Source of the DNA: Chrysochromulina tobinii
Taxonomy: Eukaryota
Direction of reading: 5' to 3'
Assembly (NCBI GenBank): GCA_001275005.1
Contig: JWZX01002916.1
Location: 1 to 45,557, forward strand
Length of the DNA stretch: 45,557 bases
Shown here: in pieces, positions 9,441 through 39,100 of the stretch
How positions within the stretch are numbered: the stretch's first letter is position 1
Layout: each line of letters begins with the position of its first letter
The notes under the pieces: generated by a model
What the model was told of the DNA's origin: nothing
The model's database searches: none
Seen by the model: the letters and a program-made list of their open reading frames with translations, nothing else
Program-made: the position numbers and the translations under genes

Positions 9441-9505
9441 CAAGCGGTACGTGTACTCGCACTCGCTGCTCGGTTCTACTGTGAACGTGAATTGTTTCCG
9501 GCTCG

Positions 9506-13070: not shown

Positions 13071-13162
13071 TTTTGGGGCCGGAAAACTAAAGTTCACTCA
13101 GGACCGACGAAACCGTTCACAGCGTCCATGGCTCTCGCCGCGCGTGCCCTCCTCTCCCGCAA

Positions 13163-14797: not shown

Positions 14798-15007
14798 GCG
14801 CTGGCCGCTGCACTCCGCCCGCCATGCCGCCCGCCCGTACGCCGCGGAGGTTTGTAAAAAAGCCTCGTGAACACGTCCGTTTCGCGTTTCGGCTGTCGCG
14901 TACATTTGAGCTCTCTCTATGATCGTTTGCCGAGGTCGCTGCAAAATCGAAAGACGAAACCAACTGCAACTTCACATGAAACGCCCGCGATCGCGCGAGT
15001 CCCCGCG

Positions 15008-15664: not shown

Positions 15665-16032
15665 GACGGAACCACCGGAACGTAAAGTGATCGAGCAGTT
15701 CTCTGCTCTTCTGAGGTTCTTGCAGGCGTCTGGTCGTTGCCGCGCATGTTACCGCGTTACCGCGTTCATGTTCTCTCTAATATTATCTTGTCTACGACTC
15801 TCCATAGATGCTCTGAGGGGCTCTTGATCCAGCACACAGTCTACCGCACCGTCCCAGCTCGGTGGAGCCGCCTGTTCGAAGCAACCGCCCCGTACACCAG
15901 GACCACCTGGCGAACACATCCAACCACTGTCGACCACACACATACGCGAATCTGCCCGTGCACTGCAGGTGTTCATGTTCAACTTGTTCCCGTGCAGCCT
16001 GCCTGCCTACTGCTCCTTGAGATCTGTGTACT

Positions 16033-16115
16033 GACCACGCTGCGTGATCTCCAACGTGCGGCAGGCGAGGAGTCTCACCTTTGTGCCACTCGCCGTCATG
16101 GCTGCAGATGTAGTC
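16033..16115 (-). promoter_or_regulatory. SECIS element (type II) in the 3' UTR of selenoprotein W
   Basis: Minus strand reads ATGA-cggcgagtggca-c-AAA-ggtgag(actc)ctcgcc-tgccgcacgttg-GA. This gives the AUGA/GA core, a 12-bp helix II with 11 pairs, apical AAA, a 6-bp mini-stem and a lower helix (gactac..ctgc / gcag..gtggtc). Confidence 0.9.
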
Positions 16116-16155
16116 CGGCACCAGCGACCATCATGCAAAAGTGCCTGGAGAGTCC

Positions 16156-16407
16156 TTACTTGACGAGCGGCTCCAGCGCCATCATGAGAGCTTGGTACTC
16201 GGCACGAGTCTGAAGTTTGCCGCCCTGGCCTCCGAGCTTGCTGTGGACGAGCTGGCCATTCGCCGTAACCTCAAAGGAGCTTCTGCGACCTGGTTTGCCA
16301 GTGATGGTGCAGCCCTTGATGTCGGACTCCAGCTTCACCTTCAGAGCATCGAAGGCGGGCTTGTAGCCTCAGGCACCACAGTATTCGACGTCGATAATGA
16401 GAGGCAT
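16156..16407 (-). CDS. SELENOW: Selenoprotein W-like (Rdx family), 83 aa, Sec encoded by in-frame TGA at 16371-16369
   Basis: MPLIIDVEYCGA-U-GYKPAFDALKVKLESD...GRRSSFEVTANGQLVHSKLGGQG. CxxU motif and FEV..NG.LVHSK signature. ORFs 16369..16734 and 16156..16338 share a frame, and a SECIS lies downstream. Confidence 0.95.
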
Positions 16408-16707
16408 GTGCGCGGTGAGCGTCTTAGCGACCGTTTCGCGCTCGGCGTGTGAGTGCTTGCTCGCCGCGATTCCCATGTCTCGGTAATAAGCCCTGCGTTC
16501 GCGTTGGGGGTCTTCGAGGAACTTCGAAGTGTCTTCGGGTAAACTCTGAACTTGAATCGTGAATTTGAATCGTCGGGACGCCGTATCGACCCTCGCCTCG
16601 AGTCCCGAGGAAAATAGATACTTCTGTCCACCCGCTGACTGTGAACACCCGCTGTGCCGCCCGCTCTGCCGTGCCCAGCGCGTAAAAACGTGACAAACTG
16701 CTCCGTG

Positions 16708-19700: not shown

Positions 19701-20716
19701 GACTCGCCGACGGCGAGGTGGACTCGTCCGTTCACACCCCCGCCTTCACGACGCGCTGGGACAATTACTGGATTGAGGGCATCCTGTGGCTTGTGCGTAA
19801 CCTCGACATCGACGGCATCTACCTCGATGGCGCACCGTACGAACGCAACGTCCTCCGCCGCCTTCGCGCCGCGCTCGAGCCCATCACCGCGCACCGGCCC
19901 AACCCCTTCCTGCTCGATTTGCATGCCTCGTGCTTTGGACATCCTCACCTTCCTTATATGGAGCTCTACCCGTTCATCGACTCGATCTGGTACGGCGAGC
20001 AGTGCAACTACATCGGGTATAGCCCCGAGCAGTGGCTCGCGGAGGTGGGTGGCATCCCTGATTGCGTCCCTGATTGCGTCCCTGATTGCGTTCCTGATTG
20101 CGTTCCTGATTGCGTCCCTGATTGCGTCCCTGACTGCGTCCCTGATTGCGTCCCTGATTGCGTCCCTGATTGCATGGCAGTGCTCACCACGGCGCCCTCT
20201 CCCCACAACACGGTGGCCGGCATCCCCTTTGGGCTGCCAGGCCAGATGCTCGGAGACCAGCGCGACCAGTTCCACGGCCTCGTCTTCGGCATGACCTGCC
20301 GCATCTACCCGGACCCCGATCGGTGCAACCCGCGCCCCCTTTGGGCGGCCCTCGACGGCCTTGGTATGCGCAGCCCGCGCATGATCGGCTGGTGGGATCG
20401 CCTCTCGCCCGTCGCCGCGCGCCCGGCCGAGCATGTGAAGGCCACCCTCTTCATCGGCAGCCGCGGCGGCCAGCCCACCTTTGCGATCGCGATGGCCAAT
20501 TGGGCACGTGAGCCCGTGCAGGCCACACTCACGTTGGACCTCATCGCGCTCGAGGCGCTCGGACTGCACGTGCCGGGAGGGGGGGACGTACGCATGAGCG
20601 CGCCCGCCATCTCCGGCTTCCAGGGGCATGCCACGTGGGCAATGGGCGCGCCGATCACGTTGCAAGCCAAGGGGAGCGGCAGCGAGGGCAAGTTTGTGCA
20701 GCTGGTCACGGTGTGA
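16708..20716 (+). CDS. DUF6067 / GH123-like putative glycoside hydrolase with N-terminal hydrophobic segment. Exons 16708-16947, 17033-17815, 17960-20044, 20213-20716
   Basis: [69 protein letters not shown] and [12 protein letters not shown] resemble the mostly bacterial DUF6067 family (recognised from memory). Introns restore the frame. The third intron has an atypical acceptor. Confidence 0.75.
16948..17032 (+). other. Ordinary intron (85 nt)
   Basis: CGG|GTATGC ... CATCGCAG|GGC, phase 0, joins ORFs 16654.. and 16991.. Confidence 0.8.
17816..17959 (+). other. Intron (144 nt) with duplicated exon end as acceptor, GATGGCCTCT repeats and an internal AG|GT
   Basis: CAG|GTGAGT donor. 17939-17959 matches exon 17795-17815 at 19/21. 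Internal junction copy at 17863-17899. Confidence 0.85.
20045..20212 (+). other. Intron-like in-frame insert (168 nt): exon duplicate, 10 x 12-nt repeat and cassette, ending in ACG rather than CAG
   Basis: GAG|GTGGGTGGCATCCC ... AACACG|GTGGCCGGCATCCC. Interrupts the WLAE-VAGIPFG motif. (CCTGATTGCGTC)n at 20057-20173. Confidence 0.65.
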
Positions 20717-20805
20717 GTTCGAAGCGTTTTTCCGGTGGCCCCTCGACTGTGAATGTAACTGTCCTACAAGTCTTTCACAGCTCGGCGTCGGCCCCGATCG
20801 CTCCG

Positions 20806-22081
20806 ATGGCGTCGATCCAATGGCAACTTCCCTCGCCATCAAAGGTCCGCCGCACGACGGCGCTGAATAAGCGCATCTTCCTGATGCTCGTCGGAGTGAT
20901 CGCCGTATTCTCCGGCAGCCTCGTGCTGGCATACCGCGCCCTGCTCTCCTCCGGCTCCACCACAGCACAAGCTGCAGCGCCGCCAAGCAGCCACGAGCAC
21001 CTTCGAGCACGTTCTACAGCAGCGGTGATTAGCGCCGTGCGCGAGCGCTTGCAGGCTCATGGTACCGAGGCTGAGCAGCAGCCGACGCGCCCAGAACCAC
21101 GCCGCCGGCAGAGCGAGGTCGCCGCTGCCGCTGCTGCCGCTGCCGCCGCCGCTACCGCAGCTTTGGCTGGGCCGCACCGCTGTCTGCCCATTGACGGCGG
21201 GCCCGCGGTGGCGCTGCCATCCGCGCTCGTGGACGACGATTATTGCGACTGCGCCGACGGCTCGGATGAGCCGCACACGTCGGCGTGTGCGGGCGTCGCC
21301 GCGAGCGCGCGCTTCGCATGCGAACGCGACCCGAGCGATCGTCCCTTGTCGCGCTCGGGTGGTCCGAGCGATTCGCCACACGCACCAGTGACGATCGCCG
21401 CATCACGCGTGCACGACGGCGTGTGCGACTGCTGCGACGGCTCCGACGAGCCGCCCTCGGCTAACTGTACGTCCGAGCGCTGCGAGGTACTCGAGGCCGC
21501 CAGAAGTGCCCAAGTGGCTGAGCGACTTGAGGGTATACGCCTCCGAGATGCACTCGCGGCACTCCCTGCATGCAAGTGCTCATCACGGCGCCCTTCCCCC
21601 TTTCCCCACAGGTATACGCCTCCGAGATGCACTCGCGGCAAGGGCTTCGTCGGCCGCACTGGCCTCGCAGCCCATGAGGAATGCGCCGCATGCCGCCTTT
21701 GCCGCCCTCTCAGGCCGCTGCTACCAGTCGGCGCAGGGCGAGTACACGTACGAGGTGTGCCTCTTCGAGCACGCGTCGCAGAAGACGGCGGGTGTCATGC
21801 ACGCGTCGCAGAGGAAGGCGGGTACCATCTCTCTCGGTCGGCGCTGGACCTGGGGCGCCTCCACGGGCGTCGTATCGGGCGCATCCACGGGCGTCGTATC
21901 GGGCGCAGGAGGAGCGCAGCCCATGGGCGTCTTCTCGGGCGGCGACAATTGCTGGGGCGTCGGGGACCGCTCGCTCACCGTGCGCTTCGCCTGCTCGGCG
22001 CACGCTGATGCGCTCGGCCACATCGCTGAACGCAGTACTTGCGTGTATGAGGTGACCCTATCGACGGCCGCCGCGTGTTGA
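20806..22081 (+). CDS. Glucosidase II beta subunit (PRKCSH)-like protein with N-terminal TM anchor, LDLa-like repeats and MRH domain. Exons 20806-21532 and 21612-22081
   Basis: [19 protein letters not shown] and [16 protein letters not shown]; after splicing, [16 protein letters not shown]...[19 protein letters not shown]...[18 protein letters not shown] (MRH). Confidence 0.85.
21533..21611 (+). mobile_element. Introner-like intron (79 nt): 50-nt cassette flanked by a perfect 30-nt direct repeat
   Basis: 21532-21561 equals 21611-21640. Cassette 21562-21611 is identical to the reverse complement of 25743-25792. Removal restores the frame. Confidence 0.85.
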
Positions 22082-22372
22082 CGCTTCTACATACTCGTGT
22101 CGTCGTGTGCCTCAGACGCCTGACGCGTGTCACGCGCTCCAAACGCCATCGGAGGGCAACCCGAGTTTTCCACGTCTGAAGCACCCGGGCGCACGGTACC
22201 GGTACGTTCACTGCGGCCCACTAACCTGGGTGGTACCGTATGACAATGGCCCTCCGCCCGCTTTGAAAGTGGGTCCGCCTATATAGCCCTTTACTGTCTC
22301 ACAGACCACAGCTCACTCGCATCAATCTCACTCGCAGCTAGCAGATCCCTACACTCGGCAATGAGCACTGGC

Positions 22373-22801
22373 TTAGGCGCCAGCGGCTGGCAGGCCGGCC
22401 GGCGGGCCGGCTGGCGGGCCGGCCGGCGGTGCGGTGCGTTCCCACGGGAAGCGCGGTGGCGCCTTGCCTGCTCGCTCGACAAATTCGATCCCATGCTCCT
22501 GCAGGGTATCCAGAACCAGCTTCACTTTACCGGTGTAGCGCTTCTTGCCGCGCTCAAAGGTCAGCTGCTGCTGGTTCGCCTCACGCGCGCGCCTTGCGAG
22601 CAAGCCTGCAGCTGCGCGCGCTGCGGTCTTGTCCCAAGTATTCTGCAGGCTCTCGCGAAGGGCCTTCTCCATCGTGTTGGCCCATAGGAAGATGTGGCCC
22701 GTACGGTTATTGACGACCTGCAGCGAAATGTACTTGTTCGAAGCAAAGATCTTGAGCAGGTTCTTCTCCGCCATTGGCAAGCGTTTGTACATGGCGGCCA
22801 T
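22373..22801 (-). CDS. rpl18: Organellar (probably mitochondrial) ribosomal protein uL18
   Basis: LKIFASNKYISLQVV...ANTMEK...AARAAAGLLARRA...FERGKKRYTGKVKLVLDTLQEHGI matches the L18p pattern. Confidence 0.85.
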   Translation of the reverse strand: MAAMYKRLPMAEKNLLKIFASNKYISLQVVNNRTGHIFLWANTMEKALRESLQNTWDKTAARAAAGLLARRAREANQQQLTFERGKKRYTGKVKLVLDTLQEHGIEFVERAGKAPPRFPWERTAPPAGPPAGPPAGLPAAGA

Positions 22802-23174
22802 GGCGGCCGCGTCGAAGCCGTGCGCCGCCTCGTGTGTCTTCCGGAGTCACGGACGCCGTGCCGAGCGCACGAACTTGCCGAATTGTGGAGAATGGCAATC
22901 AGGAAAAATAATTCGGGTGAAGTGACCTCACAACTTACACGATACATGTCTCCGCGGCGCACGCAGCAGCCTGGATACGACTCCGTAGGTAAATGCTGAG
23001 CCAGGGTACAAGGTAATAGTTTAACGGCTCGTCGCCACAGCCCGGCCGTGGCTGCCGCCGCGGGCGCTGCTGCTGCGGCGCTGCTGCTGCGGTCGCGGCC
23101 TCTACGGCCTCCGCCGCCGCGCGCTTGCCGCCGCCCGCTCTGGGGGCGCGCGCGCGGATTTCGTCAGGATTTCG

Positions 23175-26100
23175 TCAGGGCTTCGCGTCCTCCGCCTCCA
23201 CCTTCCGCTTGCGCGTGGATCCACCTCCCGGCGGCTTCGCAGAGGGTCCGGACGGGGCGCTGTCGTGAGCGTTCGAGAGGTCGCCTGGTCCGCCATTGGC
23301 CAATTTCGTCATTCGTCGTTGGCCCGTCTCGTCGCCGATTTCGTCAATAGCCTCCCGCGCGCTCACGACAGCGCCCGGGTCCTCCGCGTTGGGCGCCGTC
23401 TTGGGCGCCGGCCGCTTGCGCGGCTTTTTTTCGGGCGGCGCCGCGCCACTCTCATCCGCGGGGGCTGCTGCCGTACCGTCGGCCGCGCCCTTTGGCGCGC
23501 CGCTGGCCGCGCGCTTGCCCTTGGAGGGCGGGGCGGGCGGCAGCTCACCTTTGGCAGCTCCTTCGCACGTGGCGGCGGACTTGAGCAAGCGAGTGAGCAC
23601 GTCACGGAAGAGCGCCGTTCCGAGCACCGCCTCGATCGGACGCGGCCCGCCGCCGGGGAGGCCAACGGCCGGCCCAGCGGTCGGTGGGTAGTCCCACTCC
23701 CATTCATCTTCGTCGGTGACCCATTCTCGCTTCGAGTAGCCGTCAAGAAGCACCTGTGAAGGGAGGTCAAGGCGCCGTGGTGAGCGTTTGGGGAGGTAAT
23801 GGCGCCGTGGTGAGCGTTTGCATGCAAGGCGGGCGCGCATCGGGCACGAGAAGCCGTCGAGGAGTACCTTGAGGCCGCGTTTGGTATCGACGCTCTCGAC
23901 GACGCCGCCGTAGGGCACCGGGACGCCCTCCTCGTTGTAGTAGATGCGCAGGCGCATGCCGACCGCCTGCTTGCGGCTCACCCCGTGCAAGCCGACGACG
24001 ACGAGGTCCTTCTCGGCGCTCGCGACGGCGCTCGCGTGCTCGGCGGCACCCGCCGGAGCGCCGTGGTGAGCGCCCTCGGCGGCGCCACGCGTGGCGACGG
24101 CGGCAGGCGGCGCCACCGTGGGCGGCGGCGGAGCGCCGTGGTGAGCGCCGGGGCGCATGGCGTAGGCGCCGTGATGAGCGGCGGCGGCGGCGTGGCTCGC
24201 GGCGTGCAGGCTCGTCGCGAGCGGCGGCGGCATGGCGCTCATCACGGCGCTCAGCATCCCATTCGTCTCGAGCGGCGTCGTATTGGGCGCCCCGAACGGC
24301 GTCGTATTGGGCGCCCCGAGAGGCGTCGTATTGGGCGCCCCGAATGGCGTCGTACTGGGCGCCCCGAGAGGCGGGCGCTGAGGGTGCACCACCCGAGGGA
24401 GGGCATGCAACGGCGCTGCGCTGGCGTCGTACTGGGCGCCATTGAGGTGCGTCGTGCCGGGCGCGCCGAGGGTGGCGGGCAGCGGCTGTCGCGCCGGCTC
24501 GAGCGGGGGCGAGATCGGCAGCCCTTCGGAGCATAGGAGCGAGGCATGCGGCGCCGTGGCGAGCGCCTCGTAGCCATGGGGCGCCGTGGCGGGCGGTAGC
24601 GCCGTGGCGGGCAACGTGCGTTCGACGGCATCGAAGATGGCGTTGGCATCGATGGGAGTGGCGCCGTCCCGGGCAGGCAGTCCAGCGGCGCTGGCGGCGG
24701 CGGTGGCGGCGGCGGTGGCGGCGGACAGCGCGGTGGCGGTGGCCACACGCGCCGCGACAGGGATAGCGGCGGCGGCGGCGGCGGCGGCGGCGGGCAAGTG
24801 GTAGTAGAGGTTTGGTGTGAACTGCGGTGTGAAGCCGTGGATTGCATGCTGATTGCATGCTGATTGCGGCGGGAAGCCGTGGAAGGTTGGGTGCATCGGG
24901 ACGGCGCTGCCCAGGACGGCGCTGCCCAGGACGGCGCTGCCCGGCGGCGGAGGCTGCAGGACGGTGGGCGGCGGCGGCAGTGGAACCTGCTGGGAGCCCA
25001 GGACGGCGCTGCCCGGGACGGCGCTGCCCGGGACGGCGCTGCCCGGGACGGCGCTGCCCGGCGGCAGTGGAACCTGCTGGGAGCCTAATGGCAGCGGCTG
25101 CAGCAGCGGGTGGTGTTGCGTCGGCGGCGGAAGCCCGAGGGAGCCATCGTAGAGGCCGGAGCGCTGCGGCGGCGCTGTGGGGAAAGGCTGGCACGCCGTG
25201 CTCGCTGTGGGCGCGTCGAGCGAGGGCTGCGAGGGGAGTGCCGGTGAGGGGAATGGTGCCGAGCTCGCAAGGGGAGCGTACTCGGAGATCAGCTTGGTGA
25301 GCAGCCCGCGCAGCGTGGCGCCCTCGTCGAAGGCAATGCCGACCTTGTCCATCGCCTCGAGCGCCTCGCCGAGCACCACCGGGCCCGCATAGTGCGTCAA
25401 CGCTCGGTGCACCGTCTTGAGCGCCGCCTCAGCCTTGGCGAGGTGCGCGAGCAGCTGGTTCCACAGCGCGCCACTCACGCGCAGCTTGGCCCCCTCGCGC
25501 TGCACGCGAAGCAACTCGCCCATCGGCGGGCGCCCTCCCGTGCGCTGCCACTGCGCCGGCGCCGGAGCGCCGTTCTGGGCGGACGCGCCGTTCTGGGCAG
25601 ACGCGCCGTTCTGGGCGCCCCGCTGCGCCGGAGCGCCGCCGGCCGCGCCCGTCGCGCCGTTCTGGGCGCCGGCCGCGGCGGCGGCGGCGGCGGCCGCGCA
25701 GCCGTCGAGGAGGGTGTGTGCCTGCCGCCCCCACGCGACCACCTGTGGGGAAAGGGGGAAGGGCGCCGTGATGAGCACTTGCATGCAGGGAGGGGGGGAG
25801 GGTGTGTGCCTGCCGCCCCCACGCGACCACCTTGGCCGAGTAGTCGCGAAGGGGACCCATCGAAGGGAGCGCCATGTTGAGCGCCTCGCCCTTGGCGAGC
25901 AGCTGCTCGAGGCGGCTCGGGTCAGAGTCGGTCTGGCCACTCATGCACTGCGCGGCCTCGCCCTCCCAGGCCTTGGCCTCGAGCAGCCGCTCGTGCGCGT
26001 GCGTCAGCTCGGCGAGCACAGCCGCCTTCTCGGCCGCGAGCCACGTCGCCTCCAGCTGCGGATCCAAGCGGCGCCTCGGCGCGGCCGGCGCGCCTGGCTC

Positions 26101-29100
26101 GCCCATTACAGCGCCCACGCCCAATACAGCGCCGTTGGCCTCGGCGGGCTCGGGCGCTGTGTTGGGCGTAGGCGCTGTATTGGGCGCTGCCGCCATCGGC
26201 GCGTCGTCGCCGAGCAATGCGGCGGCGGCCTGCAAGGCTGCGCTGCGTGCCGCCTGCATCGCCGCCGCAGCGGCCGCCGCAGTCGCCGCAACTCCCCCGA
26301 GCGGTGCAGCTGCGCCGCCCCCCTTTTTGGAACCCCTTGGTGCGGGGGCACTACCGCTGCCGCTGCTACCGCTGCCGCTGCCGCTACCAAGGGCCTCCTC
26401 GATCGCGCTGCTCACGCCGCCCGCCCTCGCAGAGCTCAGCAGCTCTTCGAGGCTCTGGAGGGACACCGTCGAGGTGCCCACGGCGGCGCTCGCTGCGGCG
26501 CTCGCGGCGGCGCTCGCGGCTGCGGTTGCCGGCACGCCCGGCGTTGTCGTGGGCACCTCGCCGCCCAATACAGCGCCGTCCAATACAGCGCCGGACGCCG
26601 TCGTGGGCACCTCGCCGACCGCAACGGCACCGCCTGCCGTCGGCGGCGCGGGCGGCGGCGCGGCTGGGGCGGGCGGCGGCGGAGGCGGGCGCAGCTGGCG
26701 TGCCCACCGCCATCCTTTGAGCAGCGCGACCAGATCGCACTCGAGTCGAAAGCGTTCGCCTTCTTCGAGCCATCGGCACAGCTCCTCGTTCGTGACGCCA
26801 CCGCCCACCGCGTGCCCGACGTGCCCTCTGGGGCCGGGGGGCACGCCCAATACAGCGCCCGCATGCGGGGCATGGCGCGCCGTATTGGGCACGACCGTCC
26901 GTCGATACGATTCGAGCAGCGTGGGCAGCAGCTCGAGCTGCCACGTGGACACGTTGGTGACCGCCTTTTCGAGCAGCTCAGCCTCCTCGATGCGCACCTG
27001 ATGAGGGATCCAATCAGCACGCACTCAGCATGCACTTTGAATGCACTTTGGATGCACTTTGCATGCAATCAGAGCTCCAAAGTGTATGCATTCAGCAGCT
27101 CGGCCTCCTGGCGGCGCACCCGTAGCTTGGCCACCTTGCGCACGTGCTGCTCCGCCTTGTGCACGCTCGGCAGCCGCTTGATCTGCGGCGCGGTCACGCG
27201 CGGCTCGAATGGGAAGTTCACGCCGCGCTGTTCACAGCACCTTGGGCAGTGGAACGTGGCCGTGGCGCCCTCGGCTGTGAACTGCTTCGACTTGGCAGGC
27301 GAGATGCCGAGGCAGGTGATGTGGTACCACCCCTGGCATCCTTCGCACTCGATCATGGTGACGCCTGACGAACCCCAACGTGACGAACCCCAAGGCGCGC
27401 GGCCCATCAGTCGCACTCCATCGCAATCAACGAACCCCAACGTGACGAACCCCAAGGCGCGCGGCCCATCAGTCGCACTCCATCGCAATCAACGAACCCC
27501 AACGTGACGAACCCCTAGGCGCGCGGCCCATCAGCCGCACTCCATCGCAATCAGTGGCTGCCATCCGCGGCACGCACCGGACGAACCCCAAGGCTGGCGG
27601 CACACGCAGTAGATGGCCTCGCCGTCGCTCTCGAGGATCTCATGGAGGGTCGACATCTGGATGGCCGCGTGCTTGAACATGGAGCGCGTCTCCTCTAGCC
27701 ACCCCTGCCCACCCGCCTCGCGCTCCTTGAGCCCATCGACCTTGTCGGAGAGCAGATGGATCTTAGTGTACTGCTTCACACACTTGGCGAGCTCGTCGAG
27801 CGTCGCCGTGGGCGCCTGCAGCGCGTCCGCGGCCGCGAGCCACGTCTCGGCGTCGCTCATCTGGCGCTCAAGCAACGACTGCTCAGGCATGAGCACGTGT
27901 AGCTGCTGCCCCTGGATCGCGAGCTCGCGCATCTCGGCGAGCGCCACCTGATGAGGGAGGCAATCAGAGGTCATCAGGGCGAGGAGCACCTGATGAGGGA
28001 GGCAATCAGAGGTCATCAGAGGCAATCAGAGGTCGTCTCGGCGAGCGCTACCTTGTCGGTCGTGAGGACCCGCTCAGCGCGCGCCCTCCACTCGCCGGCC
28101 TGCTGCAGCGTCTGCTGCAGCGCCGCCCACTCGGCCGCCGCGCTGCGCCACTCGGCGCGGCCGCGCGCGCCGTCGTGCGCTTCTGCTGTGGCCTCCGCGC
28201 TGGGCGTCGTGGTGGGCGCGGCCGTGGCGCTCGGCTCGGCCCCCCTCTCTCCCTCGGTCGCGGCCGCCATCGTGGCCGGCGAGCTGGCGCTCGCACCGCT
28301 GCCCAGGGCCGCCTCGGCGCGCCGCGGCTCGCCGCCACCAACACGATCGGCGTCCGCGCCTGTCTCAGCCCCGGCGGCGGCGCCCAACTCGGCGCCCAGC
28401 TCGCACGGGGTTTCGTCAAGGCCGAGCGCGCGCCCCTGCTCGAGCAGCGGCGCCATCTCGTCCAGCTGCCCGCCGCCCTCCTCCTCCTGACGAAACTTGA
28501 CCTCCTGCCGCCACGAGCGCAGCCGGAGCGTCGTGGCCATCCCCACAGCGACCGAGAGCGCCTCCGATTCGCGCAGCAGCTCGCGGAGCCTCTCTCGGGC
28601 CGCCGCCGTGCCCGCTACCGCCCTCCGCGCTGTCCCGAGCGCGCCCCCCCGCCGCGCCGGCGGCCACGCCCTCTTCGCCGTCGTCGGCGGCTCCACCTCC
28701 ATCGGTGTCGGCTGCCCATTGGCGTGCGCCGGCGCGCCGTCCGGCGCTCGGGACGGCGCGCCGTCCGGCGCTCGGGACGGCGCTCTATCCGGCGGCGCCG
28801 ATGTGGCCTCTTCACACTTGGCCTCTTCACACTCGGCCAGGGCCGCTTCGGCGCGGGCTGTCCAGCTCTCGGCATCGCGCAGCTGCGCCGCAAGGGCGTA
28901 CACCTCGGGCAGCGTGATCGGGAGCGCCTGCCCCGCCTCGTACAGGCGCAGCGCTTCGTCAAATGAGGCGCGCGTCGCGACGCCGCGCGTCGAGCGTGCG
29001 TTGAGCGATCGGCGGCACTGCTCGAGCCACGCCTTGGCGTCGGCGACGGACTGGCGGAGCGTTTCCATGGGTTCCATTGAGACGCCATCCGCGTCGGCTT

Positions 29101-31783
29101 CGGACAGGAGCGCGGCGGCGTCCTTGATCGTCGGCTTGCCCTTGAGCTCCGCGTCCAGGCGCACCGCCCACGCGCGCGCCGTCTCGAGCTTGGCGACCAG
29201 CAACTTGGTCGTCTCGGCCGGCATCGTGCCACTCTTGCCGACGAGCTCCTCGAGGTCCTCGATCGTCGCGGGGCCCTCGAGCGCGAGCGCCGCCTGGCCG
29301 CGCCACGCATCCCCCGCTTGCTGATCGGAGACCAGCTTGACCTCGGGCAGCTCGATGCCCTTGGCCCTGGCCTCCTTGACGAGCGCCATGAGCTCCTGCA
29401 TCACATCCATTGTCGAATTGTGAGCGGTCATCAGTGGTCATCAGTGGTCATCAGTGGTCATCAGTGGTCATCAGCGGTCATCAGCGGTCATCAGCGGTCA
29501 TCAGCGGTCATCAGCGGTCATCAGTTGCACTCACCTGCCACTCGGCATTCGACTCCATCGCCGCCTTGGCGCGCTGCAGCCAGCCACGTACGGTGCCCAG
29601 CCGGCCGTCAAGCACCTCCTGCTCGGCAAGGTTGAGGTTGAGCTCCTCAGCACCAGTACTCAGCTCGTCGAGCAGCTTGAGCACCGTCGGCGTCACTGGG
29701 ACGGGCGGCACCAGCAGCGCCCGCGCATCCTCGGACCACTTGCGCGCCATGTCGAGACGGTCGCGCACCTGTGGGGAGGGGAGAGGGCGTCGTGGTGAGC
29801 ACTTGCATGCCCTCCCGCGCCATGTCGAGACGGTCGCGCACCTGGGTGATCTCGACCGCGTCAAGGCGCAGCGTGGCTGCCTCACCGAGCAGCCCCTCGA
29901 CGACGGCGACCGAAAGGCGAGCGCCTGAGGCTTTGCGAGACGACGTCCGCCGGAGCAGCTCATTGTTGACCGTCGTCATCCACTTTTTGCACGCCGCCGT
30001 GCGATCGCGCAGCACGTCGGCCTCGGGCACCTTGATCCGCAGAGCCTCGGCCTCGCGCTGCAGGTCCTGCAGCTCGCGCAGCTCGCAGCTCGCCTTGAGC
30101 ATCACTTCGCGCGTGCCAGCGAGCCAGGCGTCGACGCGCCGCAGTCGGCCGCGCACCTCTTCGACCTCGGCCAGCCGCAGAGGAATGCGCTCCCCCTCAG
30201 CCAGCAGCGCCTGCAGGCCCTCCGTCGTCTGCGGGCGGGCGAGCTGCTCGGCACAGCGCGCCTGCCACGACGCGCCGTGCTGGAGCGCCTCACTGAGCAT
30301 CGCGAGGCGCCCCGTCGAGCCCGTCGAGCCGAGGTACTTTAGGATGTGGCGGTTGAGGTCCGCCCCTCGGTCGGGCAGGCCATGCGCTTCACGCAGCTGC
30401 TTCACACTTCGACCAAGCTTGTGCGCCGCCGCGCCGTCGTGCACGAGCTTCTCGAGCTCCTTGATCTTGAGCACCGCGCCACCGCGAGATTGAGATTGAG
30501 ATTGAGATCTCAACGACCCTTGGGGCTCGTCGTCCGGCGCAGCCGGCGCCGCGCCGGCGCCGGCGCCGGGCTCCGCGGCAGAAGGCTGAGCCGCGCCCGC
30601 TTGCGCGTCTTGGCTGCTCCCGAGGAGCGCGTCCACTTGCGCGCTCCACTCGCTCACCGCCACGCGCACCGCCTCGGCCTGCTGTCGCTCGTGCGTCTCG
30701 AGCAGCGCGGCCGCGGCCGCCTCGTCCTCGCTGCCGCGGCCGAGCGCGGCGAGCGAGGTGGGCAGCGTGCCACTGACCGCGTCGGCGATGCCAGGCGCGA
30801 GCACGTTGGGGAGGAGCAGAAAGGCAGAGGCGTGCGCGGCGCCCACCACCGCGAGCAGCGCCTCGCCAGCCGCGTGCCCGAGTGCCTGCAGCTGCGCCGC
30901 CGACTCGTCCGGCAGCGCGCCCAACCACTGCTTGGCAAGGAGCAGGGCCGCCTTGGCCCTGGGCAGCGAGTAGCCACTCAGGTGCAGGTGCGTCATCAGG
31001 TACTCGGCGAAGAAGGCGTCGGACAGCGTCGCGCTCTCCACCAGCCGGTGTGCGAAAGCGAGCAGCTCGCACAGCGCCTCTTCGGCACAGCCTTCGGGCA
31101 CCCAAGCAAGAGAGCCCGCGCCGACGGCCAGGGGCTTCTCGGCCGGGTCGCGCTCCGCGCGAAGCATCGTGGGCGCGATCTGGTACTTGGTCGCGTCGAC
31201 GCGCGCGGGCTTACGCGGCATGCCACGCTCCGCGTTCTCGTGGCTCTGGTTGGCCTCGGCGAGGAGCTCCGCTTCCGTCTTCTTCTTACGCTTACCTTGA
31301 CTGTGCGCCGGGCAGGCCCACTCGCCCTCGGGCGCCACGTCGAGCGGCGGGTCGACGCAGTGCAGGTGGTACGAGCGGTCGCACCGATCACACAGGATCA
31401 GCTCGCCACTCGAGCCGCACTTGAAGCAAAAGTCGTCGTTCGTGTCCTCGGGCTCGTCAGCTGGCGGCGCGGCCGGCAGGCTGGAGGAGGAGGAGGAGCC
31501 GCCACCCTTGCCCGACGACGGTTTGCTGCCACTGTCCCATGCCGATGCTGCGATGGGGAGCACGCAGCGCGTCAGCACGCTCGATGGTCAGGCGAATACG
31601 CAGGGAGAACGCGCCGCGGGGCTGTGGCTGTGCCTGGCGGCGCTCGCGGGCTGGACAGAGAGAGGAATGGTTGGTGCCACGCGCACCCTGGATGGCTTTC
31701 GCGGCGAAGTCATCGTCACCGCTGAACCCACGGTATGGTACCAGCCTGGCACAGGTAGGATAAGCCAGGCCATTGGTGGCCAT
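23175..31783 (-). CDS. Large chromatin protein: PHD, ELM2-like, PLU-1-like helical repeats, second PHD, low-complexity region, Tudor-like domain. Exons 31783-31687, 31547-29842, 29768-29535, 29395-28052, 27947-27578, 27364-27120, 26997-25831, 25742-23868, 23753-23175
   Basis: PHD1 CFKCGSSGELILCDRCDRSYHLHCVDPPLDVAPEGEWACP. ELM2-like RVDATKYQI..EYLMTHLHLSGYSLPRAKAAL. Repeated L..L..EA..L....PE...L......W motifs as in KDM5 PLU-1. PHD2 YCVCRQP..MIECEGCQGWYHITC..FHCPRC appears only after splicing. All eight GT-AG introns restore or keep the frame. Confidence 0.8.
23754..23867 (-). mobile_element. Introner-like intron (114 nt, in frame) with diverged exon duplicate and internally duplicated cassette
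   Basis: 23847-23869 matches 23733-23755 at 19/23. Core TGCATGCAAACGCTCACCACGGCGCC...TTCACAG. Confidence 0.75.
25743..25830 (-). mobile_element. Introner-like intron (88 nt): cassette flanked by a perfect 36-nt direct repeat
   Basis: 25709-25744 equals 25797-25832. AAG|GTGGTC ... CCCCACAG|GTGGTC joins ORFs 25429..27024 and 23175..25940. Confidence 0.85.
26998..27119 (-). other. Intron (122 nt) starting with a diverged copy of the downstream exon
   Basis: The first 27 nt match the downstream exon at 22/27 (VRRQEAELL vs VRIEEAELL). Filler is GATTGCATGC/AAAGTGCAT; acceptor is CCCTCATCAG. Confidence 0.8.
27365..27577 (-). other. Intron (213 nt) with a ~62-nt tandem repeat x3; acceptor copied from the upstream exon end
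   Basis: G|GTGCGT donor. TTGGGGTTCGTCAG acceptor resembles exon end TTGGGGTTCGTCCG. Repeat period is 62 (27381, 27443, 27505). Splicing rebuilds the PHD finger. Confidence 0.85.
27948..28051 (-). other. Intron (104 nt) with 18-nt exon duplicate and internal AG|GT
   Basis: 28036-28053 matches 27932-27949 at 17/18. Two CTGATTGCCTCCCTCATCAG acceptors, at 27990 and 27948. Confidence 0.82.
29396..29534 (-). other. Intron (139 nt) filled with (CTGATGACCR)~10
   Basis: CAG|GTGAGT ... ATGCAG|GAG, phase 0. Tandem 10-mers at 29424-29524. Confidence 0.8.
29769..29841 (-). mobile_element. Introner-like intron (73 nt): cassette flanked by a perfect 29-nt direct repeat
   Basis: 29743-29771 equals 29816-29844. 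Core GCATGCAAGTGCTCACCACGACGCCCTCTCCCCTCCCCACAG. Removal restores the frame. Confidence 0.85.
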
Positions 31784-31951
31784 CCTTCGCCGTGCGGAGG
31801 AAAAGAAGAGTTGCGGCGAGAGCGCTCCGCTCGGAGCGAAACACGCGCCGACGCCGCCCAGTCGCCTTCGTGTGCGCGCCGCCGCCGTCGGGTCGTCCAT
31901 CGGGACGCCGTCGCCTGTGTCCTCCGACGGTGCCCTTTGCTTTCACTAACC

Positions 31952-34176
31952 ATGCCCCCCACGGACGACGAGTTGCTCGCAAGCAACCCGGATGCAGCCA
32001 TGTTAATCGCAGCCGGCGCGCCACGCAAGGAGGTCCTCCAGAACCTTCGCATGACCGCTGAGACGTCTGGTCCACTCAAAGGCGTGATCATGCGCGCCGA
32101 CCGCTCGCGCTTCGCCTCGTCGGTGCTCCCGCTCGGTGCCTTCCACATCTCCGCCGTCGCGGCGCTCGGCATGCCGCTCGCCGACGGCGCTCTCGGTCTG
32201 CTGCTGCTGCTGCTGTTGCTCGTCGTGCACCGCATGCTCTGGGTGCGCCTGGTGCCGCCGATGGTCTTGGCGGCCGAGCCTCCGCCGCTCCTTGGGGCGC
32301 CGACGTCGCTCTCCACCGCAGTCTTCCTCGCCGCCGCCTCGCTCGCAGTCTCGCTGCTCTCCCCTGCGGGCTCCATCATCGGTGGCAGCATGAGCGCCGT
32401 GCTCGCCGCTTGCGCCGTCACCGCGGCCGTCGTCGCCTCGGGCCAGCCTACCGACCAAGCTGCCGCCACCTCAGCCCCATCGCTGCTGCCGCCCCTCGTC
32501 CCCGCGCTGCCTTCGTGGCTCGTGCGCGGCGCGGGCGCGCTCATCGTCACTCTCGTCGCGTCACTCTCGTCCCTAGGCTACCACGGCGTGATACGCGCGA
32601 GCTGCCCCGCCGCTGCCGCCACGAGCCCGTGCGCCGCCGCGGCGTCGCACACGCCTCTCGTGGCCGCATGGGCCATGCTCGTCGGCCTCGTCGTCGCGCT
32701 CGAGCACTCGCTCGAGCGCGCCGAGGGGCCGCAACCGCCACCGAGCCGCTCGGATCGCTCGGATCGGGCTGACTTGCGGTTGCTCACTATGTACCAGCCC
32801 GGACCGGCGGTGCTTCCGAGCCGATCGGACGCGTGGCCGCTCATCGGGCAACAGCTGTGGCTGCGGCTTCGGCCGCTGCTTCCCGCGGCCCTCTCCGGTG
32901 CAGCGGCACGCGCTTGCCAGCTGGCGATCGGGGCGACGCTTGCGGCGTGGCTCGCGCCGTCGGCGGTTGACTCGCTAGGCGCTCTCGCTCTCGCGCTCAG
33001 CGGCGGCTGCACGCCCTGCGCCGCACCGGCGGCCGAGGAGCTCTCCATGGGCGACGCGCCGGGCAGCGAGGCGGCCGCGTCCGCCGCGTCCGCCGCGTCC
33101 GCCGCGTCCGCCGCTGGCCTCGGGCTTTGGTTCTCGATGCTGCTGCGCAGCTGGGCCTTCGTCGCCTCATGCCGGCTCGGATTCAGCGCCGTGCACGTGG
33201 CGTACACGCAGCCACTTGATTTCCGACGTGCCTCGGCGTCTCCGCTCGGCGACGAGAAGGTCCTCATGGCGGCCATGGCCAAGGAGGCGCCGCCCCTCAC
33301 GCAGCACCTCGCCTACCTAGACGCGGTCACTCTCGCTCGACACGAGCCCGCGCGACGCCAAGCGCTCTTCTTGTTCAATGGGGGCGCCGCGTGGCACGGC
33401 TTCCTCGAGCTCCTTCTCAAGCCCATCGACGTGATGGCGGCTAATCTGAAGGCGCGCAAGGCCCGCGCAGTTCAAGAAAAGGCGCGCGCTCCAAACGGCA
33501 CCTCCATTCACACCTCCATGCACACCTCCATGCACGCCTCCGCCCTTCCGAAAGGCTCGCTGCCCCTGCTTGCAAGTGCTCACCACGGCGCCCGCCCCAC
33601 CCTCTCCCCCCACAGGCCGCCGTTCCCAAAGGCTCGCTGCCCCTCGCTCTGCGACGTCTGACCGCGCGGCTAACCGCCATGCGTGCGGCGATGGACGAGC
33701 AGGCGGCACGGAGCTTGATCCTTGGCTCGACGCAGCTCGTCGTGTGGGCCGCTGAGGCCTCGAGCTGCCTGCTCGCCGCCGCGTTGATAGAGGACCAGGC
33801 GGGCGTCGTGCACAAGAAGGGATCGCTCAGAACGGCGCTTGCCTCGCTCGCGAGCTGCCTGCAAGCTCTGGAGGCGTTCACGGCGGGCGGCGGCGCGCCA
33901 CTCGGCGGCGCGCGCACGCGCCAGCCCGCCGCGCAGCAGGCCATCGCGCTGCGTGTAGGCGAACGCAGCGGACCCGCGCAAGACCGCGCTCAGAACGACG
34001 CTCATCGAGCGGAGGCCGTCAAGGGTGCAATCAGCCGCGCGCTCTTTCTGCTCATGCAGACGTATGGCTACCGCGCCATCGCCATCGAGGCGGCGCACTT
34101 GCCCGAGGAGCAGAGGCAGCGGCTCCAGGCATTCTTGCGCGAAGCGGGTATGCTGATCATAAATCATCATCCCTAA
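31952..34176 (+). CDS. NDC1: Nucleoporin NDC1 (TMEM48)-like membrane protein. Exons 31952-33481 and 33616-34176
   Basis: Several N-terminal TM segments, then QHLAYLD....EPARRQALF and VWAAEASSCLLAAALIEDQAGVV (Ndc1 ED.xGVV motif). A GC-AG intron joins ORFs 31421.. and 33679.. in frame. Confidence 0.75.
33482..33615 (+). mobile_element. GC-AG introner-like intron (134 nt) with cassette preceded by a 28-nt copy of the downstream exon
   Basis: AAG|GCGCGC donor. 33540-33567 matches 33617-33644 at 26/28. Core TGCTTGCAAGTGCTCACCACGGCGCCC...CCCCACAG. Confidence 0.7.
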
Positions 34177-34403
34177 CGTGTGATGCACGGAGAAGTGATT
34201 ATGTGTGGGGCGCGCAAACTGGGTCAGGGAGGCACGCTCAACGGACGAGCAAATTGTTAAGGGGAGGAGAGATAGAGGGCTTCTCATTCAACCTTGTTTG
34301 GGTCAACATTGGACTCCTTTTATGGTACAGATGTGGCAAATTTCCTAATCCAGCGACAAAAATCAACTCCTTCTGCTATTCGCACGAACAAAAACTGCTC
34401 GAA

Positions 34404-34733
34404 ATGCTGTCGACGCACGTCCCCAACGCCATGTCAACGACTCGTCTGCGAATTTGCAGTAGCTGCTCCAAGTCACTGAAGAGCGGCTCGGCGGTCCTGA
34501 TGGCTCTCGATCAGCCGTTCTGCTCCGAGCGCTGCCGATCTGAGTTCGTGTTCACGCAGGCTACTCCTAACTCGGAACCGTATACTCGAGCATACAGACA
34601 GCGAAGCGAAGGACAGGGCGTGTTCATTTCGGATCCAAAGCGCTCGAAGGATTCGCCTCAAAGCCCTCGAGAGTTCATCCAATTGTATCCAGTCACTCAG
34701 CCAAGATGGAGCGAAAGCTCGCTTGCCACATAG
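34404..34733 (+). CDS. Small FCS-like zinc finger (FLZ/DUF581-type) protein
   Basis: CSSC-x17-FCSERC matches CX2CX17-19FCSX2C. Start is uncertain. Confidence 0.65.
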   Translation: MLSTHVPNAMSTTRLRICSSCSKSLKSGSAVLMALDQPFCSERCRSEFVFTQATPNSEPYTRAYRQRSEGQGVFISDPKRSKDSPQSPREFIQLYPVTQPRWSESSLAT

Positions 34734-35322
34734 TCACTCACAGCTTCAATGGCAGCGCAGCTGTGCGGTGACCACACTGCGTGAATGTGCAGACAAAGGC
34801 CGTTATCTGCATAGACTGTGTGTGGCACGCCGTCCTCGGCCATGTCTGAGACTGTGGCAGTCTGTCGCACGGTATGTCCGTCTCTCTCGGCGGCATGCTT
34901 GTGGCGGTTGCCGGTTGGGTATAGGACTCATAGGTCTGGCGTCTGGCGCATGCGCGCCCCGTTAACGGCGCGCTGTCAAGGAATGGCGGATTGTGGACTA
35001 ATCCCGAGATCCTCAACGTTACGTTTCATAACTACACACGTGCGTACGTGACTTCTGACTACCGGCTGCGACGCTTACTGTCGCTTCTCGATTGATACAC
35101 TTCCGCCCCGGGGCGGGGGCTACGTGCTGTGTGTCGCCTGTCCGCTTCCCACTCCGCTTATTCGCATGCTCGGAGATAGACGAGAAAGAAGAAGGAAGTA
35201 CCCGAGGCGCCACCCGCTGCCGGGGCGAGCGCGGGCGCCGCGAATACGGCACGATGAGGGATCAAGTGGGCCAGTCCAGCCTAGTCCGTGAGCTCCGCTC
35301 GCCCATACCGTTCAAGCTGCTC

Positions 35323-35946
35323 TCACTTCTTTGGCGCGCGTGGCAGCTTGGCGCCCAGCTCTCGCTCCATCTTAGCGATGAGGGCATTGTTGGGGATCGC
35401 CTTGCCCGACTCATACTCTTGAACCGTCTTCACGTCGGTCATGAGCTTCTGCGCTAGATCCTTTTGCGACATACCCTTTGCGTTGCGCGCCTGCATGATC
35501 GCCTTCTTGAGGTCAGCGCTGACCGTTTGGTCTGTGGCGGGTGGGCATTCGGCGGATGTGAGCTCGGCATTGCGCACGGGGCGGAGAGGGAGCACCGCTT
35601 CGAGAACAAGCCGAGGCTTACGCTTGAGCTCCTCGGTCTCATCCTCAAGCTGCTGGTTGGTCTTGCCTGCGACCTTGGACATTGATGGACCCGGGCCCGC
35701 CGGGGCACCATCCGGGCCGCGGGCGGACTGCGGACGGGCAGAAGTTGGCCGGCTGCTAAACACGACGTTGGCACCCCAGTCCTGCGGCGTGCGCATCCGG
35801 GTGAGGAAAGTGGGGACCGCGAGGCGCGTGGAAGTGGCCCGGGAGCGGTGATTCGCGTGGGTGGGGCACGCGCGATGATGGGACTGCGGGGCGATAGCAA
35901 TCATGCGGCGTCCCACCTGACCAGCCATCTCTCCGCGCGACGGCAT
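35323..35946 (-). CDS. MBF1: Multiprotein bridging factor 1. Exons 35946-35917, 35781-35622, 35531-35323
   Basis: Spliced Q|DW at the N-terminus, LEDETEELKHQTVSADLKKAIMQARNAKGMSQKDLAQ...YESGKAIPN. Two in-frame GT-AG introns (135 and 90 nt). Confidence 0.93.
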   Translation of the reverse strand: MPSRGEMAGQVGRRMIAIAPQSHHRACPTHANHRSRATSTRLAVPTFLTRMRTPQDWGANVVFSSRPTSARPQSARGPDGAPAGPGPSMSKVAGKTNQQLEDETEELKRKPRLVLEAVLPLRPVRNAELTSAECPPATDQTVSADLKKAIMQARNAKGMSQKDLAQKLMTDVKTVQEYESGKAIPNNALIAKMERELGAKLPRAPKK

Positions 35947-36154
35947 CAGTGCGTGCTTTCTTCCAGCGGCGCGTGCTTTCTGATCAAGATCCGGCAGACG
36001 CCTCGGGACGCTTTTTCAGTGTGAACGTGAACGTACATGTAGTAGAACACGCAGGGCCATCGGAAAAACTCTTCGCGTCATTTGGCCATTTCCGACGCTG
36101 CGAGCAAAAGTCGATCAACACCCACCCGCTTTTGCACGTTCGAGCATCTTCGAG

Positions 36155-39100
36155 ATGCCGGCGGCGCGGGTCGGCATCAGCACCCGCGAGCATCACGGCT
36201 CGGATGCGAGCCCAGCGCCGCCCAAGAAGCAGCAGATGACCGACCTCACGCTCTGCTTCAGCCTTTGCTCGCTCTTTGACTTCGACAAGTCCGGCATGGT
36301 CACGCAAGAGGACTGGATCCGTGGCATGCAATGCCTCATGCTCGACGATCTGGGCAACGACCCGAAGATGTGGGCCAAAATGACCGAGATGCATGGCGTC
36401 CGCGACGGCGGCAAGGCCATGGTCGACGTGAACCGCCTCGCAGACATCGTGCCCATCGACCCTCGAGTGGCGGTGCTGCTCAATGCCGTCGTCAAGGGTC
36501 TAGTGGGCATGCGCGACTTTGTCGAGCGCTCATTCCGTAAGGAGACCAAGGAGGCGGAGGTGAAGCAATCGCGTGCGCTGATCAACATCCGCCGGCGCAT
36601 CATGCATCCCGTGCTCCATGCATGGAAAACGTACGTCACGCAAAACAAGAACCTGCTCCGAAAGAGCGCCGGCCAGGGACTGTTTTACAAGCAGCACAAG
36701 GCGTTTCGGCAGTGGAAGTACGCGCGTGAACTCTGCATCGAGGAGAGGCTCGAGGCGCGTCGGCAGGCGCGCCAGAACAAGAAGCTCGCCGCCGCCGCCG
36801 GCCGTTTCATGAACGCTAAGATGTCGATTGCATGGAACTCGTGGAAGGCGATGTATGTCGAGCGCAGAAAGATGCTCAAGATCTTCGGGAAGCTCAAGTA
36901 TCGGGCGGCCAGCTTGGCGTGGAACTCGTGCGTGGAACTCGTGCCGCCCCGCCGCGCCCGCGCCCGCGCTCACTACAGCGCCTCTACGCGCCTACGCCCA
37001 ATACAGCGCCTCTCACGCGCCTCCGCGCGCGCGCAGTCTCTGTTGCCTCGCCCCGCGTCCTGTGCTGTGCACGCCCCGCTCCTGCCATGGGAATGCTCTC
37101 GACCCTCTACCAGGGTGTAACCTGAGGGACAGAGTAGAGAGCTGTCACCCTCCATGGAGCCATGGGAATGCTCTCTACTCTGCGCTCGCACCCTCCTGCG
37201 GCGGACTACTCTGGGAATGCTCTCTGCACTGCCCTCACCTCCTCCGGCTCGCCACGGCCTGCATGCAAGTGCTCACCACGGCGCCCATGTGCTCGCCACG
37301 GCCCTGCCCTCGTTGCAGATGGCTCGAATTGCTCGCCGAACGCGACCGCATGAAGCGCTTCTTCCGGCGACTGATGAACATGGAGCTCGCTCGTAGCTTT
37401 TCAAGCTGGCTCTCTCACCTCGACGACCTCGCCGAGCAGGCGCGACTGATTGGCTCTGATTGCGTCTGATTGCGTCTGATTGCGTCTGATTGCGTCTGAT
37501 TGCGTCTCTGAGTGCATGCTGACGACCTTGCGCGAGGAGCGAGCCAAATCGAGCGCGACGCTGTGATCGCCTCTGAGTGCTTCTAATTGCCTCTGAGTGC
37601 TTCTAATTGCCTCTAATTGCTTCTAATTGCCTCTAATTGCTTCTAATTGCCTCTAATTGCCTCTCATTAGGCGCGCGAGGAGCGTTCCAAATCGAGCGTG
37701 GTGCGCCGCTTCCTACTCAAGGACGTGGGGCGGGCGCTCAACCACTGGACGGGGCTGTGGCGCGAGAGGCAGCGCTTCAAGCTCATCGGCCGCCGGATGG
37801 GCTTCGACGGCGGCCTCTCGCGTGCCTGGCGCCAGTGGGAGTACCAAGCCGCGGACGATCAGAGGCGCAAGGGGATCATCGGCCGCTTCGCCAACGTGGG
37901 CCTCACGCGAGCGCTCAATCGATGGCTCGAGTCGCTGGAGGAGCGGCGGCTGATGCGCCATTTCCTCAAGCGCGCGATGAACGGTGGGCTCGCGCGCGCG
38001 TTGACGAGCTGGTACGAGACGATGCATCAAGGTGCGTTGCCGCCGCCCCTTGGGCTCCGCACCCGTCTGGAAGGGGTGCCACCTCCGTCTGGAAGGGGTG
38101 CCTCCTCGAAGGTCTGGAAGGGGCCTCCTCGAAGGTCTGGAAGGGGTGCCTCCTCGAAGGTCTGGAAGGGGTGCCTCCTCGAAGGTCTGGAAGGGGCCTC
38201 CTCGAAGGTCTGGAAGGGGCCTCCTCGAAGGTCTGGAAGGGGTGCCTCCTCGAAGGTCTGGAAGGGGCCTCCTCCGATCCTCATTCATTCGACCGTCCGC
38301 GCGCGCCGCCGCTTGTCGTGCCCGCTCACGCCCTCCACGCACCGCCCCTCTCCCCGTCTTCTCCCCGCCCCGCACAGCCAAAAAAGACCATGCGCGACTC
38401 GCGCGCTTCGGCGCCAAGTTCCTCAAGCTCAGAGAGTTGCGCGCTTGGAACTGCTGGCTCGGCCTGCTCGAGGAGCGCGCTCGCCTGAAGGTGGTGGCGC
38501 GGCGCATGATGCAGGTCGGGGTAGTGAGGGCCATCAACCAGTGGTGTGCGTACCTCGACGGGCAGGAAAGGTGAGCGTCGCGTGTTCCTCTGCCCTCGGT
38601 TCCTCCCTCTGTGTGGTGCTCATCCTCTCTCTCTCCCTCTGTGCGGTGCTCGCCGCCGCCTGTCTCGTTGTCGCGTAGGCTACGCGGCCTCGCCACCCGC
38701 TTCACCAACTCGCCGACGGTCAAGGCGTTCAACTCATGGGTGGCGGTGCTCGGAGAGCTGCGCAAGCTGCGCGGCCTCTTCGGGCGCGCCCTCGACGGTC
38801 GGCTCTCGCGCGCCTTCAACCAATGGCTCAACTCGAACTACTCAATCAATCAGCTCGCCAAGTTTGGCGCGCGCATGGCGAATGCCGTCGCCCTACGCGC
38901 CTGGAATCAGTGGATCCACGTCTGCGCCGAAATAGGTCGGTTACGTGTCTTTGGCCGACGCATGCTCATGCAGGCGGCGAGCAAGGCCATCAACACATGG
39001 GTCGAGTTCGTCGACGAGCAGGCGCGCCTTCGTCGCTTTGGGCTGCGGCTACTCCACAGGAACGTCATCAAGGCGCTCAACACATGGGAGGTCGAGGCGG

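Follow-up and report, generated by a model that had tools for sequence, protein, structure and literature searches.

A stretch of 45,557 nucleotides of Chrysochromulina tobinii DNA (GenBank assembly GCA_001275005.1, contig JWZX01002916.1, positions 1–45,557; the window) contains seven introns that end in copies of the same cassette of about 50 nucleotides, and these introns belong to a real, actively spreading intron-making family. The host is a haptophyte: among named organisms, Chrysochromulina rotalis has the nearest relative of the window's syntaxin-18 (in a 72% cluster), and Tisochrysis also gives a match. The family acts like an introner but lacks the defining features of the miniature inverted-repeat transposable element (MITE), short interspersed nuclear element (SINE) and reverse-splicing types. 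On balance, we favour a reading in which recently gained introns combine a 5′ half duplicated from the beginning of the downstream exon with a 3′ half supplied by the cassette, and in which the family spreads by microhomology-guided template switching during repair or replication rather than by transposition of a fixed element.

The cassette core has seven matches with at most three mismatches in the window, compared with none in 100 shuffled sequences. They lie at 20171–20212, 21562–21611, 33567–33615 and 37260–37318 on the forward strand and at 23754–23826, 25743–25792 and 29769–29810 on the reverse strand, the places and strands given in the first-pass annotation of this DNA. The five host genes that it counted were also recovered: the four forward copies lie in one gene each, with Pfam matches to GH123 (20171), PRKCSH-like (21562) and Ndc1-like (33567) and no Pfam match for the gene hosting the 37260 copy, and the three reverse copies share one PLU-1/PHD gene. 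The copies at 21562–21611 and 25743–25792, which are separated by 4.2 kb and lie in different genes on opposite strands, are identical over 50 nucleotides as had been reported, and near identity over 27 nucleotides is seen among copies in unrelated genes. The reported terminal CAG does not hold for the 20171 copy, which ends in ACG in the window; a DNA run that lacks base 20211 restores the AG, and this base is probably an error of the window sequence. Single-base indels between the window and the DNA run occur at 20211, 25759, 28760–28764 and 33590.

Splicing at these cassettes was examined in contigs assembled from five metatranscriptome runs, with joints taken from the matches listed. RNA contigs join precisely across five of the seven window introns, showing that their cores lie at used 3′ splice sites. 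For the 21562 and 25743 introns no RNA joint was present among the matches listed; the former is backed by intron-less homologues and the latter by its reading frame, a homologue search with the PLU-1 exon having returned no match that could give it outside support.

Six of the seven window introns contain, in their 5′ part, a duplicate of the bases that open the next exon downstream. The clearest case is the 79-nucleotide intron of the PRKCSH-like gene (21533–21611, +), in which 21533–21561 aligns at 29 of 29 positions with its exonic original at 21612–21640, the cassette (21562–21611) fills the remainder, and the whole is present in some strains and absent from others. Within the PLU-1/PHD gene on the reverse strand, the 88-nucleotide intron at 25743–25830 has a 34/34 copy, with splicing deduced from the frame; the 73-nucleotide intron at 29769–29841 has a 26/26 copy and a joint (29742>29816) in 4/4 RNA runs; and the 114-nucleotide intron at 23754–23867 has a 17/21 copy, an internal repeat within the cassette and a joint (23751>23866) in 3/4 RNA runs. 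The GH123 intron (20045–20212, +) consists of a 12/14 copy of the exon start, an array of 12-mers containing TGATTGC and the cassette at 20171–20212, and its joint (20043>20212) occurs in 4/4 RNA runs, with base 20211 deleted in the DNA run. The 134-nucleotide intron of the Ndc1-like gene (33482–33615, +) has GC-AG borders, a diverged exon-start copy of ~27 nucleotides, short tandem repeats between the GC donor and that copy, and a joint (33479>33614) seen with short sides in 4/4 RNA runs. The exception is the 391-nucleotide intron at 36928–37318 (+), which ends in the 37260 cassette and whose joint (36927>37319) occurs in 3/3 RNA runs and is absent in the DNA run; in the alignment, no stretch of this intron clearly repeats the beginning of the exon downstream. 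The duplication, starting with GT or GC, thus acts as the donor and the CAG of the cassette as the acceptor, and splicing restores the coding sequence.

The same design extends well beyond the window. An exact-match scan of metagenome contigs yielded at least 123 related loci (L numbers below) and 254 core matches, of which 186 with a pyrimidine tract, an AG and enough flank gave 133 distinct acceptor sites, the other 68 being set aside; together with the window, the family therefore has at least 133 acceptor sites in at least 123 loci, at unrelated positions. Among the matches listed, the exon start is repeated without gaps upstream of the core at 82 of the 133 acceptor sites, compared with 0.7% of shuffled pairings. 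The duplications range continuously from 12 to 47 nucleotides (median 27); when tandem cases are left out, 71 of 77 start with GT and 60 of 77 are preceded by G. Eleven of 72 duplications start at an older acceptor. The sequence CCCCACAG ends 95 of the 133 acceptor sites, and the cassette ends vary, with tails of 10–40 nucleotides and linkers of 0 to more than 30. About one third of each intron is locus-specific, including the 12–47 nucleotides at its 5′ end, so that similarity near both intron ends is not found. Duplication age showed no rise with core mismatches (rho −0.25) among seeds that had been preselected for exact cores. An inverse relation between duplication and insert length (rho −0.43) was weaker in perfect duplications (p 0.19) and was not used.

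Homologous loci with and without the insert indicate that the gain is recent. Among 19 aligned pairs, four cassette introns are cleanly absent from the other allele, which retains one copy of the repeat: one in L005 compared with L006, two in L080 compared with both L046 and L074, and one in L015 compared with L105. The flanks of filled and empty alleles diverge by 1.5–1.8%, and the empty contigs retain other intron sequence, so they do not derive from spliced RNA. The 21533–21611 intron behaves in the same way. Fifteen of the 24 members of one protein cluster and one further protein were read at this site: 11 of the 16 have no insert (5 of them on contigs of 4.0–15.9 kb), 4 carry the translation of the cassette and 1 starts downstream. 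The intron is also absent from three distant homologues. Since strains without the insert keep a single copy of the duplicated piece, the gain is recent, and gain is favoured over loss because the repeats are nearly perfect and the outgroups are empty.

The first-pass annotation placed the cassette always in the sense orientation and at the 3′ end of the intron, which holds in the window but fails in the related loci. Nineteen copies that lack a normal acceptor were picked by hand and inspected. These end at the core or just past it, 12 have a flanking repeat scoring at least 12, and the repeat period is divisible by three in 8 of the 12 (p 0.009 for 8/11, one tandem array being left out). Tail-less copies also stand in frame inside exons. 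Six sites in four loci (L008, L043, L049 and L073) are antisense to a long open reading frame or to neighbouring intron markers, and the CCCCACAG tail is present in 0/6 of them. In mirror copies (L073 and L035) the roles are exchanged, the cassette providing the donor, while the acceptor comes from a repeated end of the upstream exon. Of 82 sites given to a codon model, 32 were unscorable and 6 of the other 50 were called antisense; because the 21533 site, which is sense according to Pfam and its homologues, was among the six, these calls were not taken as evidence of antisense orientation. As a separate observation, antisense copies lengthen long open reading frames by short peptides at L008 1290–1700 (four in tandem), L049 1500 and L043 1427–1530.

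Because copies are also tail-less, antisense and in frame in exons, the bias towards sense orientation and GT is likely due to selection, not targeting. The mirror copies, the in-frame copies and the same designs in a second intron family (described below) further suggest that the raw event is likely a duplication of the target with a templated insert, filtered afterwards so that splicing is exact or the frame stays intact. The initial description of the cassette as a mobile half-intron that supplies only the 3′ splice signals is therefore correct as to mobility, the use of its acceptors and the existence of empty sites, but "only 3′, always sense" is too narrow in view of the 5′ sites provided by mirror copies (L073 and L035), the apparent movement of a whole intron (L021) and the antisense copies in exons.

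Sequence carried over from donor loci reveals where some inserts came from. The insert of L067 contains 18 nucleotides from the exon-derived end of an L014 intron and has the same tail, with matches of 8 and 5 nucleotides at its junctions. The two new introns of L080 have the same linker as an older intron (L074/L046) that lies 225–330 nucleotides upstream of them in that gene, one junction showing a 7-nucleotide match, and exon-derived sequence of L071 recurs in L021 and L019. The duplication abuts the core directly at 18 of 64 sites; with one tandem copy dropped, 9 of the 17 direct junctions have a 5′ microhomology of at least 2 nucleotides, compared with ~8% expected by chance. Together with the three donor–recipient pairs, these junctions carry the microhomology, of 2–8 nucleotides, expected of templated repair insertions. 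Near-identical cassettes are also enriched among neighbours: across 111 sites, 7.2% of 83 same-region pairs are near-identical compared with 2.0% of 6,017 others (permutation p 0.002), a signal that comes from few clusters. Neither a longer master copy nor a small RNA containing the cassette, both suggested as search targets in the first-pass annotation, was found, with 0 Rfam matches in the window, and viral contigs had 0 exact cassette matches; the donors appear to be ordinary earlier copies.

According to the template-switching reading, synthesis would pass through the target and then jump, at a microhomology of 2–7 nucleotides, to a donor just upstream of its GCATGC. Some 38–73 nucleotides of the donor, which could be any existing copy and often a nearby one, would be copied before synthesis returns to the target upstream of its exit point, in many cases where a G|GT-like sequence matches the acceptor junction of the donor itself. 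Such an upstream return would duplicate the target around the insert. Raw insertions would arise in both orientations with variable 3′ ends, and selection would retain those that are spliced out exactly or stay in frame. As every intron gained would in turn act as a donor, a master element and terminal repeats would be unnecessary. It is quite possible, though somewhat short of an even chance, that the family has neither a master element nor a transposase of its own and that its introns act as templates for repair synthesis, in a chain reaction that would have produced maybe thousands of introns as well as in-frame peptides in proteins. Each success would then end in CAG|GT and so match the next donor-like target better as a primer.

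Several observations weigh against this reading, and some of them fit other routes equally well. The 5′ edge is non-random, with 54 of 66 non-exact copies beginning at core position 1 or 2 (5 of 71 were dropped as spurious), and GCATGC varies at 1/318 positions compared with 87/1,060 elsewhere. At 51 of the 133 sites there is no ungapped duplication of 12 nucleotides, many of these showing gapped or older ones; the near-donor signal, from its few clusters, is built on non-independent pairs; and long open reading frames and intron markers, rather than Pfam or RNA, served to assign the host strand at the antisense sites. Since duplicated targets can also be lost precisely, losses could account for some of the empty alleles. 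Published polymerase-theta insertions are shorter and closer to their template (mostly <30 bp, within ~30 bp) than those considered here. The long, variable duplications with 5′ carry-over also fit target-primed reverse transcription, in which a reverse transcriptase acting in trans, of the non-LTR (lacking long terminal repeats) or Penelope-like kind, would copy an intron or pre-mRNA, a staggered cut would produce the duplication, and the cassette would be a SINE-like passenger. We regard this as rather unlikely, although it accounts for much: the duplications vary in length as in SINE and non-LTR insertions, the 5′ junctions show microhomology, the donor flanks match the copying of host transcripts, the 5′ edge is fairly fixed, CRE-clade elements give duplications of varying size (PMC12278014), and a non-LTR family that co-opts the 5′ site and carries the 3′ site is listed for a haptophyte of the Pavlovales. 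The lack of a poly-A or other fixed 3′ tail (the CAG tail occurs in 0/6 antisense sites), the apparent preference for near donors and the absence of a reverse transcriptase among the 18 window exon pieces searched argue against it.

The insert of L021, which resembles a copy of nearly the whole L071 intron and has no visible duplication, also fits reverse splicing. Spliced cassette introns would then reverse-splice into DNA or RNA, in full or to the first step, and a half reaction with bottom-strand cleavage downstream and fill-in would leave a precise CAG junction, a 5′ end that is truncated and a duplicate of the first bases of the downstream exon; this route agrees with the precise CAG|GT junction at most sites (95/133 ending in CCCCACAG), with a target consensus that resembles a splice junction and with the 11/72 duplications that begin at an older acceptor, and the model has been proposed for Micromonas (PMC4540971). 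It is nevertheless improbable, because it cannot yield antisense, tail-less and mirror insertions with the same duplications, selection alone predicts the GT bias, and introners of this type, as in the model for Micromonas IE and fungal ILE, would be whole introns in sense orientation without duplication, whereas duplications occur at 82/133 sites and antisense copies exist. A non-autonomous DNA transposon, that is, a MITE-like introner flanked by a target-site duplication, follows the same splice logic as the Symbiodinium and Polarella classes that co-opt a donor from the duplication, and the constrained GCATGC could be a protein site; however, known duplications of this kind are fixed at 3–8 nucleotides, and the spread of 12–47 nucleotides seen here largely refutes such an origin; the missing terminal inverted repeats, the variable ends and the carried donor flanks also speak against it, leaving it very little probability. 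The opposite view, that nothing moves, that tandem duplications make the introns and that the core is a convergent branch-point motif or was spread by later gene conversion, can point to a genome rich in short tandem duplications and to CTCAC-like motifs in older introns. It is just as hard to sustain, given the 27-nucleotide near identity across unrelated genes and the joint arrival of cassette and duplication in filled and empty pairs, which refutes it unless all of these are precise losses.

A near-fixed 5′ edge and an almost invariant GCATGC are not predicted by template switching alone, and a sequence-specific factor or selection on splicing would be needed in addition. In animals, the RBFOX element has the sequence UGCAUG. 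GCATGC is missing from many of the window's spliced introns. The A at core position 16 lies 22–29 nucleotides from the acceptor in 109 of the 133 sites, and the A of CTCAC is, from its sequence and spacing, a putative U2-type branch point; CTCAC-like motifs also occur in older introns. When the cassette and three introns were folded as RNA, no convincing structure emerged (z +1.15 to −1.76); 53 non-exact copies mostly retain a 5-bp stem that surrounds the putative branch A, a weak sign. A 16-nucleotide motif, GYGCYCAHNAYRGCGY, akin to the 3′ part of the core, occurs 18 times in the window compared with 0.05 in shuffles, in both orientations and in exons rich in Ala and Pro (2084, 2237, 2264, 23359–26892 and 36966); it may be a source or an older product of the cassette.

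The design can be compared with several known systems. Donor-co-opting introners (10.1101/2020.10.14.339549; 10.1101/2022.06.06.494994) likewise take the donor from the duplication and the acceptor from the insert, restore the mRNA exactly and comprise many related introns, but they have fixed duplications of 3–8 nucleotides and defined ends, often with inverted repeats, whereas the cassette family has variable ends and carries donor flanks. The survey of 10.1101/2022.06.06.494994 required similarity near both intron ends, and the table of PMC12130899 gives 0 introner families for Chrysochromulina tobinii; the core string was absent from all of the latter's supplement files that were searched, 12 of 14. 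That paper also lists two families from haptophytes which, compared by description only, co-opt the 5′ site and carry the 3′ site, but have few copies: Emiliania huxleyi fam24, with 5 copies, 10-bp terminal direct repeats and a mechanism given as unknown, and the non-LTR fam1 of Pavlovales, with 7 copies. Marine Chrysochromulina genomes have introners, one of which is shown with a 4-bp duplication. The intron gains of Daphnia (PMC3443670, PMC4540971) are also polymorphic new introns between direct repeats and are read as scars of double-strand-break repair, but their repeats measure 5–12 nucleotides and the donor is unclear, whereas the cassette repeats are longer and constitute the donor site, and what fills the space between them is a single repeated family whose donors can be traced. 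In tandem duplication of AGGT segments (PMC3443670), too, a duplicated exon piece gives a splice site, and the duplications of L068 and L084 span AG|GT; the cassette family differs in adding, between the copies, a foreign cassette that provides the acceptor and the probable branch point. Polymerase-theta templated insertions (10.1101/2019.12.20.882852) resemble the cassette inserts in their short, microhomology-primed synthesis, which copies a nearby template in direct or inverted orientation, but typically comprise 3–30 bp from within ~30 bp, whereas the cassette inserts comprise 38–73 nucleotides, come from a distance of hundreds of bases or kilobases, and are self-amplifying. The variable duplications of CRE elements come with a poly-A tail (PMC12278014). 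The accessible text of the C. tobin genome paper (PMC4580454) mentions introns once, that of PMC12480563 has nothing on this intron family, and a literature search made mostly without subscription papers or bioRxiv supplements found no description of it.

A second family of introns in the window is built from 10-mer arrays (TGATTGC/CTGATGAC, often with a CCCTCATCAG end), and many of its members have the same exon duplications. It occupies 3889–3970, 10962–11240, 11383–11633, 12585–12685, 17817–17960, 26998–27119, 27948–28051, 29396–29534 and 37440–37670, and hybrids with the cassette occur, such as 20045–20212. On the reverse strand, the 26998–27119 intron (TGATTG, CCCTCATCAG end) has a diverged exon-start copy of ~26 nucleotides and an RNA joint, the 27948–28051 intron has a 15/16 copy of the first 16 nucleotides of the exon and a 10-mer array with no RNA joint among the matches listed, and the 3889–3970 intron, whose borders are possibly off by a few bases, has a copy of ~19 nucleotides. 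On the forward strand, the GC-AG intron at 37440–37670 has an internal 26-nucleotide copy of the exon start and an RNA joint; with 33482, it makes two GC-AG introns among the 14 joined introns. Longer tandem arrays in probable introns lie at 880–1165 (37-nucleotide units), 11740–12070 (~11) and 38060–38270 (23–25). Among the related loci, tandem whole cassette introns that differ between alleles occur in L046 (1500–1600), L122, L016, L071, L085 and L014, and likely arose by unequal exchange between duplicated targets. L111 has an extra unit at 300–420 whose middle matches L103/L120, which is either an assembly chimera or an exchange between copies and was not counted, and L077 differs from L032 by a 615-nucleotide insertion (262–877) unrelated to the cassette.

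How spliceosomal introns newly arise has been an open question for a long time, and for most recent gains the source cannot be traced. In the present case, a single algal lineage that can be cultured displays empty and filled alleles, donors and junction scars together, which makes the mechanism directly testable. The design unites two models that are usually kept separate, the direct-repeat scars of repair and the repeated families of introners. If the density of the window held over a 59-Mb genome, there would be ~9,000 cassette introns (range 3,600–18,700). Since every intron has a locus-specific 5′ end, a survey that demands similarity at both intron ends would count such genomes as free of introners, and this route of intron gain may be undercounted elsewhere.

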